Part shown: positions 5,677 through 49,582 of the stretch, one piece after another
How the letters are laid out: every line of letters begins with the position of its first letter
How positions within the stretch are numbered: position 1 is the stretch's first letter
Position numbers and translations under genes: made by a program
NCBI GenBank assembly: GCA_030606215.1
Contig: JAUWGW010000007.1
Span: 1,615-65,614 of the forward strand
DNA: 64,000 nt
Direction of reading: 5' to 3'
Source: a bacterium
Lineage (GTDB): Bacteria; NPL-UPA2; JAUVJM01
Notes under the pieces: model-generated
The model's database searches: none
Told to the model about the DNA's origin: nothing
Seen by the model: the letters and a program-made list of their open reading frames with translations, nothing else

Positions 5677-7896
5677 ATGAAAGAGAATAGAGAAAAAGTA
5701 TTTCCATATGGGACACATATTTACAGAGTCCCCAATTTACCCATTCCAGAATTAAAGAAAGATATGGTTCTTCTCAAAAGATTAGGCTTTAATATGGTCA
5801 AAATTCAAGAATCGTGGAGCCACGATGAAGTAAAAGAGGGAGAGGTGAACTTATCTGATGTAGAAGAATTGGTAAAAGAGGCAGAAAAACTTTCTCTTTT
5901 TGTTTGCTTAGGAATTACCATGGAGCAAGCACCAGCATGGCTCTGGAGAAAATATCCTGATTGCAGACTTGTTTATAACACTGGAGAACCACACAATGAC
6001 CCCACCCAGTATCTTCTCCCTGCAGATGGGAAACCCGGTCCTTGCTGGGACCATCCAGAAGCAAGAAACGCTGGCGAAAAATTTATAAAAGAATTGGTAA
6101 AGAAACTCGGAAAATACAAAAACATTATTACCTGGAATGTATGGCAGGAAGTTGAATTCCGGCCTATGTATCTCGGTAAATTAGGTTTCTGTTATTGTCC
6201 TCACACTCTGGCTAAATTCAGAAAATGGCTGAGGAAAAAATATGGTTCTTTAGAAAAACTCAATGACACATGGAAAACTTCCTATGGAGAATGGGAAGAA
6301 GTTGAACCACCAAGGTTTCATCCCTATGTCCATTCATGGATTGACTGGCGTTATTTTATGGATGATGTATATTTAGCAACTGCTATTAAATGGAAGGTAA
6401 GTGCATTTAAAGATAATGACCCACTAAAAAGACCGGTATTTTGCCACGTAGGCTCACCTACTACTGGTAGCGGAAAAGATTGGAGATATGCTAAAGAGGT
6501 AGATTTCTTCGGTTCTTCCTGTTATCCCGCATGGGACTCTCTGGGCAAATGGGATGCTGGGTTTCCCAGCACAGGTGGGACAATTTCCAAAGAAAAGGCT
6601 CTAAAAGCCGAGATGTGGAATAGCATCTCTTTACGCTTTGATTATATAAGAGGTGTATCTAAAGAGAAAGAGTTCTGGGCCGCAGAGTTTCAGGGCGGAC
6701 CGGCAGTTGGTTTTTTACATAAGGGCAGAACACCGACGAAGGAAGATATAAGGAGGTGGGTATTAACTGCTCTTTCAACTGGCATTTCCGGGCTTTCCTT
6801 CTGGAATCACAGAGTAGAAATCTCCTGGCAGGAAGCTTATGGTTTTGGTCTCCTACCATTAGAAGGAAATATAACCGACAGAGCAAAAGAAGCAGGAGAT
6901 TTAAGTAAGGCAATAAATAAATATGGTGAGTTTTTTAAAAAAAGTAATGTAGCAGAATCTCAAGCAGCCATCTTTATAAATGAAGACCTCTATCACTTCT
7001 GCGAAGGCACACCTATTACTTCCTGGGATACCTATAGTCTGACTAACAACCTCTCTTCTCATTTAACTCACACCATCAGAGGAATCTATAAGATGCTATG
7101 GGAAGAAGGAATCCTGGTAGATTTTGTTGAAGAAAAAGAAATTAAAACTGGTGAGATGGAAAAATACAAAGTTATTATTCTTCCCTTCCCTTTAGCAATA
7201 TCTGATGAATTGATGGAGAGGCTCAGAGATTATGTTAATAGTGGCGGCGTATTGATTTCAGAAGCTTGTCCAGGTAGGTATGATAAACATGGTTTTGCCC
7301 GTCCTGGAGAGATAAATAGTGTTGCTGAACAACTTTTCGGAGTACAACATAAGGATGTGATTTTGTGCCAGGAACCAGAAGAAAATCATTGGACGCCAAC
7401 GGAATGGAGCTACGGGGAAATCCTACTGCCAACAAGATTTACTGGAACAGGTGTTTTTAATGGGCATTCAGTCCTGGCGAATCTCTATGTAGAAAGTTTT
7501 TCTCTGAAGGAAGCAATTCCAATTCTACTGAATGGTGAGGACATAACTGGTGTGGTTAACCGCTATGGTAAAGGAAAAGTATATCTAATTGGAACATTTC
7601 TTGGTCATGCTGGTGCCACTTATGAAGACAAACCCACCCAGAACTTTATAGTGAAATTAATTACCGATGCAGGAGTCAAGCAGGAGAAATGCGGAAAATT
7701 ACTTAGACGAAAGCGTATTTTGAATGATAAAGAAGCATGGTTTTTAATTAATCCAACTGCTGATACTATATCTGAAGCCATAGACTTTAGAGATTTTGCT
7801 AAGGTTGAGGACTTATTAGAAAGTTCATTCAATAAAAATAAGTCTGTTGAAGTCCAGCCATTTTCTGTAAGAGTTATTATTCTCGGAAAAGAGTAA
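5677..7896 (+). CDS. GH42-like glycoside hydrolase (beta-galactosidase family)
   Basis: 739 aa. N-terminal TIM-barrel region resembles GH42 (..LKRLGFNMVKI..APAWL..). Overall trimerisation and C-terminal domain architecture fits. Confidence 0.55.
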   Translation: MKENREKVFPYGTHIYRVPNLPIPELKKDMVLLKRLGFNMVKIQESWSHDEVKEGEVNLSDVEELVKEAEKLSLFVCLGITMEQAPAWLWRKYPDCRLVYNTGEPHNDPTQYLLPADGKPGPCWDHPEARNAGEKFIKELVKKLGKYKNIITWNVWQEVEFRPMYLGKLGFCYCPHTLAKFRKWLRKKYGSLEKLNDTWKTSYGEWEEVEPPRFHPYVHSWIDWRYFMDDVYLATAIKWKVSAFKDNDPLKRPVFCHVGSPTTGSGKDWRYAKEVDFFGSSCYPAWDSLGKWDAGFPSTGGTISKEKALKAEMWNSISLRFDYIRGVSKEKEFWAAEFQGGPAVGFLHKGRTPTKEDIRRWVLTALSTGISGLSFWNHRVEISWQEAYGFGLLPLEGNITDRAKEAGDLSKAINKYGEFFKKSNVAESQAAIFINEDLYHFCEGTPITSWDTYSLTNNLSSHLTHTIRGIYKMLWEEGILVDFVEEKEIKTGEMEKYKVIILPFPLAISDELMERLRDYVNSGGVLISEACPGRYDKHGFARPGEINSVAEQLFGVQHKDVILCQEPEENHWTPTEWSYGEILLPTRFTGTGVFNGHSVLANLYVESFSLKEAIPILLNGEDITGVVNRYGKGKVYLIGTFLGHAGATYEDKPTQNFIVKLITDAGVKQEKCGKLLRRKRILNDKEAWFLINPTADTISEAIDFRDFAKVEDLLESSFNKNKSVEVQPFSVRVIILGKE

Positions 7897-45819: not shown

Positions 45820-46584
45820 TTAGCGCTCCTTCAGTCTTATCTTTCCCCATATTCCAAGTTTATCCCCGAAAATGATGACAACACCTCTCACACCATTTAT
45901 TGAGCGGGCAAAATCTACGGCTTTTTCAATGTCAGAATGGCTCTTCACAAGATTGCAGGTAGCGGTTGCTGCAGCATCAGCAAGGATTGCTGAAGGAGAA
46001 TAAATTACTACTGCGTCAGCGTTGCCAAAACTTAAAGAATGACCAACTGTTCCAGAAGAAGTGCATATGCCCAGAGGAGTCTCATCAGGTTCTATTTCCA
46101 GAGCTATCTGTTGGGTGAATATTGAATCTCCTGCATATATTGCTACAACCCTCCTGCAGTGAGATTTAAGGAAAATGTCTCCACCGTTTTCCACAATAAT
46201 TTCACTGGATTCAGAAAGTAAATTTTCACCTACATATTGTGCAATTGCTCCTGCGACAGTTGCCATCGGACCAACACCCGCTTTACATGATTCAGAAATC
46301 ATATCCTTAATAATGCGAGGAGCTCCTTCCTCGATATCTACCGGAGACAGACTCTTCAAAAATTCCCCCCTCTTTCTTATATAGCTTTCAATCTCCTGTC
46401 TATAGCGTATGACAGATGTAAGTGCCTGTTTCTTTAAATTTTCGAAGTTTTGTGGGAGACATCCCCGCCTCGCCGGCGGGCGGGTCCTGATGTCGAGTGA
46501 AATCAGGAGGTCAGTTTCTTTTTCACATATGGTGAAAGTTCCCAATCCCCCTGTCCCAACCCAGCTTCTATAAGTCTTATTCAT
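45820..46584 (-). CDS. UPF0280/COG2122 (ApbE-superfamily-like) protein
   Basis: Gly/Ala-rich ApbE-like core (GPMATVAGAIAQ.., GICTSSGTVGHS). Abuts the DUF39 gene. Confidence 0.5.
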   Translation of the reverse strand: MNKTYRSWVGTGGLGTFTICEKETDLLISLDIRTRPPARRGCLPQNFENLKKQALTSVIRYRQEIESYIRKRGEFLKSLSPVDIEEGAPRIIKDMISESCKAGVGPMATVAGAIAQYVGENLLSESSEIIVENGGDIFLKSHCRRVVAIYAGDSIFTQQIALEIEPDETPLGICTSSGTVGHSLSFGNADAVVIYSPSAILADAAATATCNLVKSHSDIEKAVDFARSINGVRGVVIIFGDKLGIWGKIRLKER

Positions 46585-46627
46585 CCTTAACGATAATGGT
46601 ATGTCAAAGTTGAGAGTTAGTCAATAG
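46558..46627. repeat. Copy A of a ~70 bp imperfect direct repeat: first 8 codons plus upstream promoter region of the COG2122 gene
   Basis: ~85% identical to 49298-49366 by manual alignment. Confidence 0.6.
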
Positions 46628-46717
46628 AAAAGGCGGTGATTGTGGATAGTTATGGATAATTAAAAGGAGCAACAAACAATTGACACCATACTCCCAAAGC
46701 GGTATTATTGAGCAGAG

Positions 46718-46945
46718 ATGAAATGTAGTATTGAAGGATGCCCAGGTGAGTACGAGGGACGAAAGATTGTACATACTGTGCGGTTTCAAGGAAAGGTGGT
46801 TGTTATTGACCATGTCCCAGCAAAAGTCTGCTCAGTATGTGGGGATACACTGCTGAATCTAAAAACTACGCAGCGAATCGAGGGGATGTTACAGAAAACA
46901 ACCAAGCCGGAGGCAGAAGTTCCACTCTACGAATATGCTAAATAG
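46718..46945 (+). CDS. YgiT-type (MqsA N-terminal-like) zinc-ribbon protein, solo
   Basis: CPxC...CxxCG pattern with ..VVIDHVPAKVCSVCGDTLL.. reminiscent of the MqsA N-terminal zinc finger. No HTH domain. Confidence 0.5.
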   Translation: MKCSIEGCPGEYEGRKIVHTVRFQGKVVVIDHVPAKVCSVCGDTLLNLKTTQRIEGMLQKTTKPEAEVPLYEYAK

Positions 46946-47080
46946 GGATGACCTTGGCCATTTCGCCTTTTTGGGCTCCAGAAGCGAAGTTTTTGGCTAG
47001 AATAAGCCATGGCAAACTCAGAGCAAAATTTGACGATTCAAAGAATTTCTTTAAGTAGATGGTTGGAGGGGCAGAGCGTC

Positions 47081-47413
47081 ATGAAAACACGCGGTTTTCT
47101 AATTATTGTTTGTTTCGTTTTTCTCTTGGCCTCCTGCGGACCGAAGCCGGAAAAAACTATAATCGGTAAATGGGAGAGAATAGGAGATTCCAAGACTATC
47201 GAGTTCTTTAAAGATGGCACCGTAAGCATTGTTAAAGGGGAAATGTGTGCGGGTGGAGACTACAAGTTCATTAGTGCCAAGCGAATAAGGCTTGAGTTGG
47301 GTGGTGTATGGGCGTTGATTGGCCCTATCATCTACAACGTCTCTATCGTCCAAGACAAACTCATTTTGACCACTGCTGACGGGGAGTCTTCTGAATATCA
47401 AAAAGTCAAATGA
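47081..47413 (+). CDS. Small lipoprotein (signal peptide with lipobox LLASC)
   Basis: MKTRGFLIIVCFVFLLASCGP N-terminus. The ORF-track start at 47009 is probably too far upstream. Confidence 0.5.
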   Translation: MKTRGFLIIVCFVFLLASCGPKPEKTIIGKWERIGDSKTIEFFKDGTVSIVKGEMCAGGDYKFISAKRIRLELGGVWALIGPIIYNVSIVQDKLILTTADGESSEYQKVK

Positions 47414-47853
47414 ACCTATTTAAGAATTTACTTTCCGAGCTCGAAGGCAAGCTCAAAAATCACGGCTCATTTATCCTTCTTCCTGGGGAATCTATTAATG
47501 ACATCGTTAATCGGTTCGGTGTTTCTTCTGAACCTGGAGTTTATATAATCTACGGTTGTGCTTCTAAGAAAGAGAAAGTTATTTATATCGGTAGTAGTGG
47601 ACGTATAAAACAAGACGGGTCATTTGGGAAACAAACACTCAAAAAGCGTCTTACAATGAAGCAATGCGGAGAATATCGAAGAAAATTCTTCGGAAACATT
47701 CTTGCAAAGGGGAAATATTCCAAACTTCTTTTTAAGTGGTTCATTACTTTCGATTCATGCAATAAATTGCTCCCAGCTAACATTGAAGGCGATTTAATGC
47801 AAGCTTATTATGATGATTTTAAATGTCTTCCGGAATACAACAAATCATATTGA
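47410..47853 (+). CDS. GIY-YIG-domain protein (putative small nuclease)
   Basis: PGVYIIYG..(9 aa)..VIYIGSSGRI matches the GIY/YIG spacing. Start overlaps the lipoprotein stop (ATGA). Confidence 0.4.
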   Translation: MNLFKNLLSELEGKLKNHGSFILLPGESINDIVNRFGVSSEPGVYIIYGCASKKEKVIYIGSSGRIKQDGSFGKQTLKKRLTMKQCGEYRRKFFGNILAKGKYSKLLFKWFITFDSCNKLLPANIEGDLMQAYYDDFKCLPEYNKSY

Positions 47854-47939
47854 GTAAAGTTTATTGGCCTAACTGGCCCACCCAACATCCTGTGAAAAAG
47901 AGCTTGTGGCGCAACTTATAAAAATTTCTCATTTTATCC

Positions 47940-47967
47940 TTGACAAAAACGCTGTGCGGTGTATAAT
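47940..47967 (+). promoter_or_regulatory. Sigma70-type promoter TTGACA-16-TATAAT with tandem TGTATAA repeats (47960-47966 and 47974-47980) upstream of vapB
   Basis: Read directly from the sequence. RBS AGGAGGTGA follows at 47981-47989. Confidence 0.5.
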
Positions 47968-47994
47968 GTAGGATGTATAAAGGAGGTGAGAACC

Positions 47995-48252
47995 ATGGGT
48001 AATTTACATCGGACTCAAATCTACATTGAGGAAGATCAAATGCACCAGCTCAAACTTGAAGCAGAGAGAGAACACCTCGCTGTGTCTAAATTAATCCGCC
48101 ATGCGATCGACCGGCTCTTAAAAACAAGGGCCAACAATATTGACTGGGACAGGGACCCTCTCACCAAAGCCATTGGCAAGATTAAACTCACGGTAACTAA
48201 CGCCGCTGTGGATCACGACCACTATTTATACGGGCGGAGAAAAAGGAGATGA
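47995..48252 (+). CDS. vapB: VapB-type antitoxin (RHH/CopG-like)
   Basis: Small protein with N-terminal ..TQIYIEEDQ..L..LIRHAIDRLL consistent with a ribbon-helix-helix. Directly upstream of the PIN toxin. Confidence 0.5.
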   Translation: MGNLHRTQIYIEEDQMHQLKLEAEREHLAVSKLIRHAIDRLLKTRANNIDWDRDPLTKAIGKIKLTVTNAAVDHDHYLYGRRKRR

Positions 48253-48255
48253 TTT

Positions 48256-48663
48256 ATGGAAAAGGTATTTGTAGACACCAGTGGTTGGGTAGCCCTCTTT
48301 GTAGCAAATGATAAAGATCATAAAAAGGCAGCTCCCATTTTTGATGACCTTAAGCGGTTAAAGGTGCTCATTTATACCTCGGACTATGTCATTGATGAAA
48401 CCATTACAACCATTTTGGCAAGAGGAAACCACAAACAATCTGTCTTTGCAGGCAAAGTTCTCCTCACAAGTGAAATCATCAAGATAGTGCATATTTTCCC
48501 AGACTATTTTCAAAGTGCCTGGAAACTTTACCAAAAGTACAAGGATAAAAATTTTAGTTTCACAGATGTTACCTCCTTCACAGTAATGAAGGATCTCAAT
48601 ATCAACAGGGCTTTTGCTTTCGATAGAGAATTTATACAGGCGGGAATCGAACTGATAGGATAA
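48256..48663 (+). CDS. vapC: PIN-domain toxin
   Basis: VFVDTSGWVALF N-terminal acidic motif. Conserved downstream acidic residues (..DETIT.., ..FTDVTSF..). Confidence 0.85.
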   Translation: MEKVFVDTSGWVALFVANDKDHKKAAPIFDDLKRLKVLIYTSDYVIDETITTILARGNHKQSVFAGKVLLTSEIIKIVHIFPDYFQSAWKLYQKYKDKNFSFTDVTSFTVMKDLNINRAFAFDREFIQAGIELIG

Positions 48664-48668
48664 TCTCT

Positions 48669-49013
48669 ATGAGCTTTTGGAACTATTTTGTCGGAGAAGC
48701 ATACTGTCTCTACGACGCTTGCAAGGATAAAAAGATAAAAGTCTGTACGGCTAATTCTCTGAAAGAATTTTTCAAAGATCTGAAAAAGACCAAACGCATT
48801 AAGTGGCAAATAATAAAGAATCCTTCCTACATAAACAGTAAACCTTTTTGCAAGAGCCCTGGCAGGATGACATGGAAGAAATTTTCGAAATGTATTGGGG
48901 AGGGGCACCAGAAACGCTGCCCATTTTTGGGATATGTATTAGCAGATAAAGAAGAATTTATTGCTGCAGTAAAGGCAATAGAAAATAGCCCAAGAGAAAA
49001 AAAGACCCGATAA
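48669..49013 (+). CDS. Hypothetical Cys-rich small protein
   Basis: ORF only. Six Cys, no recognisable domain. Confidence 0.3.
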   Translation: MSFWNYFVGEAYCLYDACKDKKIKVCTANSLKEFFKDLKKTKRIKWQIIKNPSYINSKPFCKSPGRMTWKKFSKCIGEGHQKRCPFLGYVLADKEEFIAAVKAIENSPREKKTR

Positions 49014-49297
49014 ACTCACATATTTAGCCTTATTCAGAATTTTGCTCCACCCCGATGATAAAAACCCGCCTCTTCGGAGGGTCACCGATGAGGCGACCCT
49101 TTCAAATTTGCCATACACAGCCATTTCTCGACCCTGTTAGACCAGAGTATGTAGGTAAACTCTCTCCTGAAAGTGCAGACCCCCTCTCAGAGCCCGAATT
49201 TTTATCACCATAAATTCCCCTTCTAACTCTATTTTTGCCAGTTTTGCATAGAGAAGTTGGAGCAAATGGTATTCTAATATGGAAAGGGAATTAGGAA

Positions 49298-49366
49298 GAC
49301 CAGTTTCTATAAGTTTTATTCATGATAACGATAATAATATGTCAAAATTGAGGGTTGGTCAAGCGG
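49298..49366. repeat. Copy B of the ~70 bp direct repeat. On the minus strand it carries a truncated duplicate of the COG2122 gene start (MNKTYRNWSS*)
   Basis: Aligned by eye to 46558-46627. The minus-strand reading gives 8 identical codons, then a stop. Confidence 0.6.
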
Positions 49367-49453
49367 GTAATAAAAATTTCTTGCAATTCAAGTAAAACCA
49401 CTCTAAAATCAGAATTTAGAATTCGGTCTTCGGGTTTCGGTAAAGGTAGATAC

Positions 49454-49537
49454 CCAGTAAACGCCGTGTCATTCTGACCCTGAGTGAAGGGGAAGAATCT
49501 ACAAGAGATTCTTTGTCGCGTTGCTCCTCAGAATGAC
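49454..49537. repeat. GTCATTCTGA-family intergenic repeat (copy 3) with its inverted partner. Forms a long imperfect hairpin: gtcattctga..gaagaatct / agattctt..tcagaatgac
   Basis: Outer 10-bp and inner 8-bp complementary arms read from the sequence. Confidence 0.55.
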
Positions 49538-49582
49538 AGATTGGGACGCATTTGCTGAATGTTTACGTGAGGGTTTATTCAG

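Follow-up and report, generated by a model that had tools for sequence, protein, structure and literature searches.

How did the promoter and first codons of a single housekeeping gene come to lie twice in a bacterial genome, on either side of 2.7 kb of accessory DNA? This question is raised by contig JAUWGW010000007.1 (assembly GCA_030606215.1; GTDB lineage Bacteria; NPL-UPA2; JAUVJM01), of which we analysed positions 1,615 to 65,614. This whole stretch of 64,000 nucleotides (nt) is referred to as the window, and coordinates given without a contig name are positions within it. The gene belongs to the UPF0280 family (COG2122), its two beginnings form a direct repeat (copies A and B), and the DNA between them, here called the islet, is separated from carA by copy B. 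The initial annotation of the window read the arrangement as consistent with an insertion or recombination event that had duplicated its target region. We consider, with a probability of about 45%, that the islet is the scar of a single recombination event, anchored by homology, at the 5' edge of the operon headed by this gene, resembling homology-facilitated illegitimate recombination (HFIR) or a Campbell-type homeologous crossover.

Two diverged copies of a promoter and gene start bound the islet

46561..46624, minus strand: copy A, with -35 TTGACT at 46619-46624, -10 TACCAT at 46596-46601, ATG at 46582-46584 and codons 1-8 reading MNKTYRSW
49291..49362, minus strand: copy B (repeat at 49300-49362) and its open reading frame (ORF), with -35 TTGACC at 49357-49362, -10 TATTAT at 49334-49339 and ATG at 49321-49323
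45820..46584, minus strand: UPF0280/AbpE_bact (COG2122) gene, 254 aa; NCBIfam NF003323 at 299 bits against a cutoff of 271, and PF27030

A blastn search, a MAFFT alignment and a repeat search all aligned copy A with copy B; the two agree at 54 of 64 positions (84.4%), and the alignment includes a single 1-nt indel. Within the window, the blastn match between the two regions has E = 4e-14 and is the sole pair of its kind, with no third copy found, and the local alignment score of 43 lies far above the 8.3 ± 1.6 obtained with shuffled sequence. The direct repeat of about 85% identity that had been placed at 46558-46627 and 49298-49366 is real, and its alignable cores are slightly narrower. Over the 160 nt beyond each repeat end, A and B resembled each other only at the level of shuffles, so that the edges of the repeat are sharp.

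Read on the minus strand, the two copies have in common TTGAC(T/C), 17 nt, TA(CC/TT)AT, about 10 nt and then ATG AAT AAR ACT TAT AGA ARC TGG. Each is a sigma-70-type promoter with a near-zero leader followed by the first eight codons of a UPF0280/AbpE_bact gene, in agreement with the promoter-like sequence and eight codons that the initial annotation had recognised in both. Copy A continues uninterrupted into the body of the UPF0280 gene and serves as its working promoter and 5' end. The ORF of copy B has ten codons (MNKTYRNWSS and a stop) and ends at 49291, also as first described. Alignment of the flanks against shuffles revealed no remnant of the UPF0280 gene beyond codon 8 of copy B; a pseudogene extending from copy B was ruled out, the gene resemblance ending right past that codon. 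The promoter matches the consensus at 10 of 12 positions in copy B and at 9 of 12 in copy A. The public NCBI call of the UPF0280 gene (P0001, 179 aa) begins at an internal TTG and omits the first 75 residues; the omitted N-terminus, MNKTYR.., is conserved in all homologues, and homology supports the 254-aa reading.

The promoter is conserved in relatives and copy B is the less derived

The UPF0280 gene heads an operon that runs COG2122-HcyBio-NIL/ferredoxin-MAP (methionine aminopeptidase)-LpxK and continues into further lipopolysaccharide (LPS) genes; the LPS genes indicate a diderm host. A search of 5.8 billion proteins placed the closest UPF0280 homologues at 65-73% identity, and three of their contigs (L082, L083 and L124) could be read. 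In L082 (963-1003), TTGACTAAATTTTAATCTTGTCATATCATTA stands immediately upstream of ATGAACAGAACTTACAGAAACTGG; in L083 (1311-1341), an AMP-binding gene comes between the promoter TTGACTGACCCTCAATTTTGACATATCATTA and the UPF0280 gene; and in L124 (4015-4045), TTGACTAACACCTGATCCTGACATATCATT is found about 60 nt upstream of the UPF0280 start. The operon promoter is conserved across lineages whose proteins have diverged by about 30%. In all three contigs the resemblance starts at the -35 TTGAC, which is the upstream limit of the A/B repeat as well; because the orthologues share this limit, the upstream edge of the repeat marks the end of conservation and is not necessarily a breakpoint. In both the window and L082 the promoter is separated from the ATG by only about 10 nt, so that a leaderless or near-leaderless mRNA would be expected; L124 has a leader of about 60 nt, and L083 has a 236-nt leader together with the extra AMP-binding gene.

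The relatives also allowed the differences between A and B to be polarised. Over the 31 nt of the promoter, A and B match at 26 positions, A and L083 at 27, and B and L083 at 28. Over the 24 coding bases, A and B match at 22, B and the outgroups at 21, and A and the outgroups at 19. On a five-way alignment, about seven derived states fall in the working copy A and about three in the orphan copy B. Those of A comprise TACCAT in place of TATCAT at the -10, one inserted nt and a GG ahead of the ATG, the codons AAG and AGC, and one spacer change; copy B has kept the ancestral residue Asn7, and its -10 is better than that of A. On these counts, which are small, a target-site duplication followed by decay appears disfavoured, because a neutrally drifting copy would be expected to be the more derived, yet the orphan is the less derived. 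The duplication of the target region proposed at first is disfavoured in the same way, A and B being no closer to each other than either is to L083. The polarity would fit a history in which A and B each evolved as a working promoter before their union, or one in which both are still constrained.

A duplication in situ would have doubled the 64-bp target by a staggered break or a replication error upon insertion, with copy B drifting since then as a pseudo-promoter. A direct duplication around an insertion is the classic signature of such an event, yet we regard it as quite improbable here. Beyond the polarity, a divergence of 16% implies an old event, yet B keeps its -35, the better -10, the ATG and eight codons; the islet modules share 88-94% identity with their counterparts elsewhere and so are of a younger age than the A/B split would suggest; and 64 bp far exceeds the target duplications known for transposases, with no terminal inverted repeats present.

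Constraint on both copies would take the form of an old duplication of which both products were selected, with B driving a short leaderless peptide or RNA, or antisense transcription into the toxin-antitoxin pair (vapBC) and the cysteine-rich ORF of the islet. The higher consensus match of B and its closeness to the outgroup promoters speak for this, as does a hairpin with a T-run about 230-260 nt downstream on the minus strand (~49060-49100). A promoter function by itself would, however, leave the conservation of eight codons unexplained; the RNA downstream of B has no unusual fold (z = -1.6 and -1.0), Rfam gave no match at gathering thresholds or at E <= 5, and the arrangement was seen in no second genome. 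We accordingly give this explanation little credence.

The islet is a mosaic of accessory modules

The 2.7 kb between A and B is a mosaic of accessory DNA with truncated genes and truncated intergenic elements, and not one element. All of its genes lie on the plus strand, beside an 18 kb block of minus-strand genes, exactly as the initial annotation stated. In the list that follows, L085, L114 and L117-L122 are contigs of related gene arrays, which are described further below.

46680..46945, plus strand: solo YgiT-type zinc ribbon (gene 46718-46945), 75 aa; TIGR03831 at 32 bits against a cutoff of 20.2, with an N-terminal CxxC...CxxC zinc ribbon
46999..47872, plus strand: HU-lipoprotein-p3 shared module; 93.7% nt identity over 874 bp to L085 6810-7682, and a further match to L114 4025-4552
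~47005-47058, plus strand: 3' remnant of an HU-like gene, its last 17 codons, SHGKLRAKFDDSKNFFK and the stop
47081-47413, plus strand: lipoprotein gene; lipobox LLASC read from the sequence, weak DUF5640 match
47410-47853, plus strand: orphan gene p3, 147 aa, with a 4-nt overlap with the lipoprotein gene
47940..48663, plus strand: vapBC-type pair; promoter TTGACA-16-TATAAT at 47940-47967, 12/12 consensus
47995-48252, plus strand: vapB, ribbon-helix-helix (RHH) antitoxin gene; PF01402 at 23.7 bits against a cutoff of 20.5
48256-48663, plus strand: vapC, PIN toxin gene; PF01850 with E = 9.8e-12, 46 bits against 23.6
48587..49067, plus strand: shared module of PIN 3' end, Cys-rich ORF and 54 nt; 89% nt identity over 481 bp to L117-L122 and 88% to L114 10001-10399
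48669-49013, plus strand: Cys-rich ORF, 114 aa; small conserved family with 11-12 matches
49011..49144, plus strand: truncated copy of an intergenic element of about 118 nt, cut off after GTTAGACCA, with a hairpin insertion of about 32 nt at ~49065-49096
49147..49268, plus strand: fragment like the upstream region of 347-355-aa array genes; 66-78% identity to L085 3691-3807 and 4818-4936 and to L114 2310-2372

The zinc-ribbon gene is preceded by the promoter TTGACA-17-TATTAT (46680-46708; 11/12 consensus). The features of a full-length MqsA, with its C-terminal helix-turn-helix, were not detected in the protein (TIGR03830 at 18.5 against 61.8 bits, PF15731 at 18.4 against 30); no MqsR-type toxin ORF is adjacent, the neighbours being the promoter of copy A and the HU remnant, and no cluster mates were found at 90% identity. 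To its right, the shared module begins within a gene. L085 carries an intact HU gene of 74 aa (6644-6868; PF00216, E = 1e-9) ahead of the same lipoprotein gene and 147-aa gene, and because only the last 17 HU codons remain in the window, the left junction at 46999 cuts through a gene.

Among 5.8e9 proteins, p3 had only three relatives. Of the gene content first assigned to the islet, the zinc ribbon, the lipoprotein, vapBC with its 12/12 consensus promoter and the Cys-rich ORF all stood; the GIY-YIG label of p3 was not verified: PF01541 matched residues 43-68 only, with E = 0.43 and 11.4 bits against a cutoff of 22.6, and searches of NCBIfam and of PDB profiles returned no match. The motifs GVY...YIG...R can be seen by eye, and the secondary-structure order of an AlphaFold2 model, unreliable at a predicted local distance difference test (pLDDT) score of 47, is compatible with the beta-beta-alpha-beta-alpha fold of GIY-YIG nucleases. 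The search against defence-system models suggested at the outset (PADLOC) yielded nothing beyond two weak PDC-S14 matches, both for p3 (E ~1e-3).

In the vapBC pair, the vapB stop at 48252 and the vapC start at 48256 are separated by 3 nt, and the acidic residues D7, E48, D103 and D122 of vapC can be read from the sequence; the most probable role of the pair is that of an ordinary addiction or stress module. The family of the Cys-rich ORF has the invariant residues E10, C13, C61, C84 and P85, with C75 nearly so. No fold was recognised for it (model pLDDT 64; Foldseek against PDB gave noise only). In all other contexts this ORF comes after a peptidase C1 gene, and in L117-L122 the spacer between the two holds a remnant of the PIN 3' end. 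Because this remnant persists upstream of the Cys-rich ORF there, the vapC-Cys adjacency of the window is the older state.

The fragment at 49147-49268 is not followed by a 347-355-aa gene in the islet. The two junctions inside the islet, like its right-hand end, are truncations, and this is the signature of illegitimate joining rather than of a coherent element. The islet genes are predicted to be expressed from their own consensus promoters.

Mobile-element searches at the islet

No recombinase or transposase domain was detected in the islet proteins or in the flanking genes to about 12 kb on each side (contigs L001 and L084), which bears out the absence of an integrase or transposase noted at first. 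A tblastn search with the L085 integrase gave no match, and neither inverted repeats at the islet ends (46625, 49299) nor a tRNA was found. A transposon or insertion sequence with target-site duplication was rejected, given that transposase and inverted repeats are absent and that the duplication is 64 bp long and 16% diverged, as opposed to short (2-15 bp) and identical. INPHARED and PLSDB held no DNA match to the islet, and IMG/VR held no relatives of the Cys-rich ORF, p3, PIN or zinc-ribbon proteins; a phage or plasmid origin was dropped for this reason. A metagenome scan with the promoter pattern recovered L083 again, together with generic sigma-70 promoters, and no further relatives.

These searches bear on a second explanation, in which the islet would be a decayed or non-autonomous integrative element akin to cis-mobilizable elements (CIMEs), which are non-autonomous derivatives of integrative elements. 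A tyrosine recombinase would have inserted it site-specifically at the UPF0280 5' end, the element supplying a surrogate promoter and 5' end, and A and B would be attL and attR. The accessory DNA at the 5' end of this conserved gene is indeed enclosed by direct repeats, the proximal copy does restore gene function, and a 228-aa tyrosine recombinase is encoded in L085, an array that has a module in common with the islet. There are also precedents: SXT/R391 occupies the 5' end of prfC (PMC5812530), and genomic islands that target dusA are outlined in a further account (PMC8409611). Nevertheless, besides the lack of a recombinase gene in or near the islet, the longest exact runs common to A and B are 10, 10, 9 and 8 nt with evenly spread mismatches and no clear core, no copy of the 64-bp sequence was found in any array contig, and the interior and right end of the islet consist of truncated fragments. 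A second instance of the islet was found neither among about 15 billion proteins nor in the scanned contigs. We therefore consider an att-type origin unlikely.

A possible homology-anchored displacement at the operon 5' edge

The recombination that we favour would have proceeded as follows. Incoming DNA from a related lineage would have brought a promoter and 5' end of its own (copy A), upstream of which lay genes derived from the arrays. It would have recombined through the UPF0280 gene on one side; on the other it would have been joined illegitimately to the resident copy, past codon 8, and the resident promoter with its eight-codon stub (copy B) would have been left stranded beside carA. 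Copy A would now drive the operon, and copy B would be an orphan whose promoter still looks intact. Only one illegitimate junction would be needed, because the gene-side edge of B is a sharp truncation after codon 8 and its other edge is the limit of conservation. The layout, in which A continues into the gene and B is a sharply truncated stub, is that of a displacement scar. Such a displacement would explain the sharp gene-side edge, the edge at the -35, the deep A/B divergence despite the younger content, and the ancestral-like state of B. The repeat and its content, the promoter conserved across lineages, the mosaic of recurring modules, the lack of recombinase genes and the polarity of the A/B differences are observed; the mechanism of recombination and the identity of the resident copy are inferred.

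The surroundings of the operon in other lineages were consistent with a labile 5' edge. Its upstream neighbour is an MBL-fold (metallo-beta-lactamase) gene in L082, an AMP-binding gene and a divergent carB-like gene in L083, and PfkB/RecG in L124, so that no two of the four lineages agree; the gene order downstream is kept in L082, L083 and L124 (also in L123). Because the upstream neighbours vary while the downstream order holds, the 5' edge of the operon is a recurrent synteny breakpoint. In L083, the relative at 73% identity, the carB-like gene (3-1037) is divergent and lies about 270 nt from the conserved promoter, which echoes the layout of copy B and carA, 220 nt apart in the window, and weakly suggests that copy B is at the ancestral position.

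The islet is absent from the three closest relatives (L082, L083 and L124), as is the adjacency to carA. None of them has the same gene order with both repeat copies, an arrangement that would have marked the islet as ancestral. The view that the DNA between the repeats is accessory is upheld in that parts of it occur elsewhere in other contexts. The empty site that had been predicted, with the COG2122 gene directly beside carA, was not found, the neighbours differing in every relative; likewise, none of 80 GTDB loci whose UPF0280 homologues were at most 55% identical had carA or islet genes nearby. The best GTDB hits, at 54%, are spread across several phyla.

The assembly was compared with an independent one, the Logan assembly of SRR14876848. 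Its contig L001 confirms the stretch from copy A through vapB, including the zinc ribbon and lipoprotein-p3, at 100% identity, and L084 confirms carA onward. Logan breaks at ~48291 and ~49521, and the stretch with vapC, the Cys-rich ORF and copy B is present in the NCBI contig alone. This is one of several points that weigh against the displacement that we favour. The polarity count, about seven against about three, is small. No donor, recipient or empty-site genome was found among the sequences searched, and the direction of the event is read from only about 55 alignable bases. The carB-like gene of L083 is 55% identical to the carB of the window and is not accompanied by carA, so that it lends weak support to the position of B. 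Moreover, homology-facilitated illegitimate recombination is documented mainly in naturally transformable bacteria.

The two Logan breaks also raise the prospect of an assembly chimera, in which a vapBC or Cys-ORF module repeated in the metagenome would have led the contig of this metagenome-assembled genome (MAG) to fuse two loci or two strains, so that A and B would not truly lie 2.7 kb apart. Complete exact PIN or Cys-rich ORF sequences are missing from Logan there, none is on record outside the NCBI contig, and paralogous Cys-ORF modules exist in related arrays. Against this, the NCBI contig spans the region, and a unitig-style assembly is interrupted wherever it meets a repeat or a variant. 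A mis-joined contig would still have, in either half, a promoter copy abutting array-type DNA, A as confirmed by L001 and B as present in the NCBI contig, and most of the main observation would stand. A chimera is, in our judgement, rather improbable.

If a homology-anchored displacement did take place, the locus would be an example of a housekeeping operon that survived the arrival of foreign DNA at its promoter, the newcomer having brought a working promoter and start and the old copy remaining as a datable scar. More generally, an apparent target duplication can be two xenologous versions of one site, which matters for mobile-element calls and for the dating of insertions. We further predict that RecA-dependent recombination between A and B could on rare occasions delete the islet, which would leave a hybrid promoter beside carA.

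Related gene arrays in subsurface metagenomes

The HU-lipoprotein-p3 and Cys-ORF modules, together with the intergenic elements, recur elsewhere in other contexts at 72-94% nt identity (88-94% for the modules); no relatives of the zinc ribbon or of the intact vapBC were found in the related arrays. The contigs concerned are L085 (1-8132) with L086, which overlap and form one 11.8 kb stretch, L114-L116, which come from one subsurface metagenome sampled three ways, and L117-L122. All derive from subsurface or groundwater metagenomes and consist of hypervariable arrays of co-oriented genes, with genes for histone-fold, HU, lipoprotein, metallophosphatase, peptidase C1 followed by the Cys-rich ORF, toxin-antitoxin pairs and paralogous unannotated proteins of 347-355 aa. 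Their modules are multi-gene units of 2.7-6 kb. The element of about 118 nt lies at module 3' ends in L086 and L114-L122, is conserved in sequence and is always on the plus strand (repeat family D3 in L114). Its consensus fold has zero predicted base pairs and thus no conserved secondary structure, and the element is absent from IMG/VR. The 228-aa tyrosine recombinase stands at the start of the L085 array (1382-2068), co-oriented with it, and matches Pfam Phage_integrase and, weakly, MrpR_C_cat. Directly upstream of it (L085 1097-1215) are about five 21-nt tandem repeats (TGTGTTGTTTTAACCGAGTTT), which resemble iterons or arm-type sites.

In composition the arrays of L085-L086 and L114-L116 are window-like (GC 0.41-0.43, tetranucleotide r = 0.90-0.91), and the islet is native-like, with GC 0.407 and a tetranucleotide r of 0.874 compared with 0.911 ± 0.025 for window segments. 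L117-L121 have a GC of about 0.49, like that of the relative L083 (0.48). Because the Cys module retains 89% nt identity to these GC ~0.49 contigs, compared with about 73-83% for core proteins, modules move between lineages. Illegitimate joins are routine in this gene pool, because junctions fall inside genes both here and in the related arrays. The recurring modules and intergenic elements of the islet would derive from such a pool, borne by this lineage and its relatives. The locus points to a shuffled pool of accessory modules common to poorly known subsurface bacteria, and the arrays are likely to be of more interest than the islet itself.

It is conceivable that the islet is an outpost of an undescribed gene-capture system of an uncultured subsurface lineage, with arrays of multi-gene modules that end in the co-oriented 118-nt element and are served by a small tyrosine recombinase with iteron-like repeats. 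The A and B stubs would then mark a site where modules were captured under or beside a strong conserved promoter. We hold this to be very unlikely. An integron cassette array was rejected, since the 118-nt element has no attC-like structure and no IntI is present in the window.

Other features flanking the islet

46435..46482, minus strand: 48-nt GC-rich palindromic in-frame insertion in the UPF0280 gene, adding 16 aa (LDIRTRPPARRGCLPQ) near the N-terminus
49363..49582, plus strand: carA upstream region, with a candidate promoter at 49381-49409 back-to-back with copy B
49468-49537: hairpin of 70 nt in the carA leader, GTCATTCTGA...TCAGAATGAC, -32.4 kcal/mol, z = -4.06

The insertion in the UPF0280 gene lies about 80 nt from copy A and has a DNA fold with z = -3.0. 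Its 16 aa are missing from the five closest UPF0280 homologues in a protein alignment, and it occurs as a single copy in the window; it is reminiscent of small palindromic elements that insert into coding regions. On the other side of the islet, the Logan contig L084 starts inside the hairpin of the carA leader, which suggests a multi-copy or variable element; no other copies of the hairpin were found in the window or the retrieved loci.

Comparison with known systems

The displacement model was published for effector-immunity arrays of type VI secretion systems (T6SS), with the displacement of Rhs C-termini cited as a related case (PMC5361080). With the scars of T6SS, Rhs and contact-dependent inhibition (CDI) systems, the islet would have in common a homology-anchored incoming module, a resident part kept as an orphan stub and a mosaic with truncated genes (PMC5361080). 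It differs from them in that the displaced piece is a housekeeping promoter and 5' end, rather than a toxin 3' end with an immunity gene, and in that the event would be a single one with a mechanism deduced from the layout.

In SXT/R391 and the dusA islands, as in the islet, a conserved gene has accessory DNA at its 5' end, between direct repeats of which the proximal one restores promoter and start. For SXT at prfC, Hochhut and Waldor (1999) reportedly found that the element supplies a new promoter and N-terminus. In contrast to these elements, the islet has no integrase, excisionase, transfer genes or clear identical core, is a mosaic of truncated fragments, and has no second occurrence among the sequences scanned.

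Sedentary chromosomal integrons, such as that of Vibrio with its VCR repeats, are similar to the related contigs, with their co-oriented modules, repeats of about 118 nt between them and, in one contig, a tyrosine recombinase. Unlike the repeats of integrons, however, the 118-nt repeat has no hairpin or R''/R' symmetry; the recombinase is 228 aa long, co-oriented and without a recorded IntI-type match; the array modules contain several genes (2.7-6 kb); and the window holds only one truncated copy of the element.

Small vapBC genomic islets are similar to the present one in their canonical RHH and PIN pair with its own strong promoter, orphan neighbours, divergent intergenic site and native-like composition; the flanking duplicated promoter stub and the sharing of modules with large arrays are unusual for them. 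The locus most likely belongs to known kinds, as a toxin-antitoxin genomic islet combined with a recombination-displacement scar, and does not represent a new type of mobile element.

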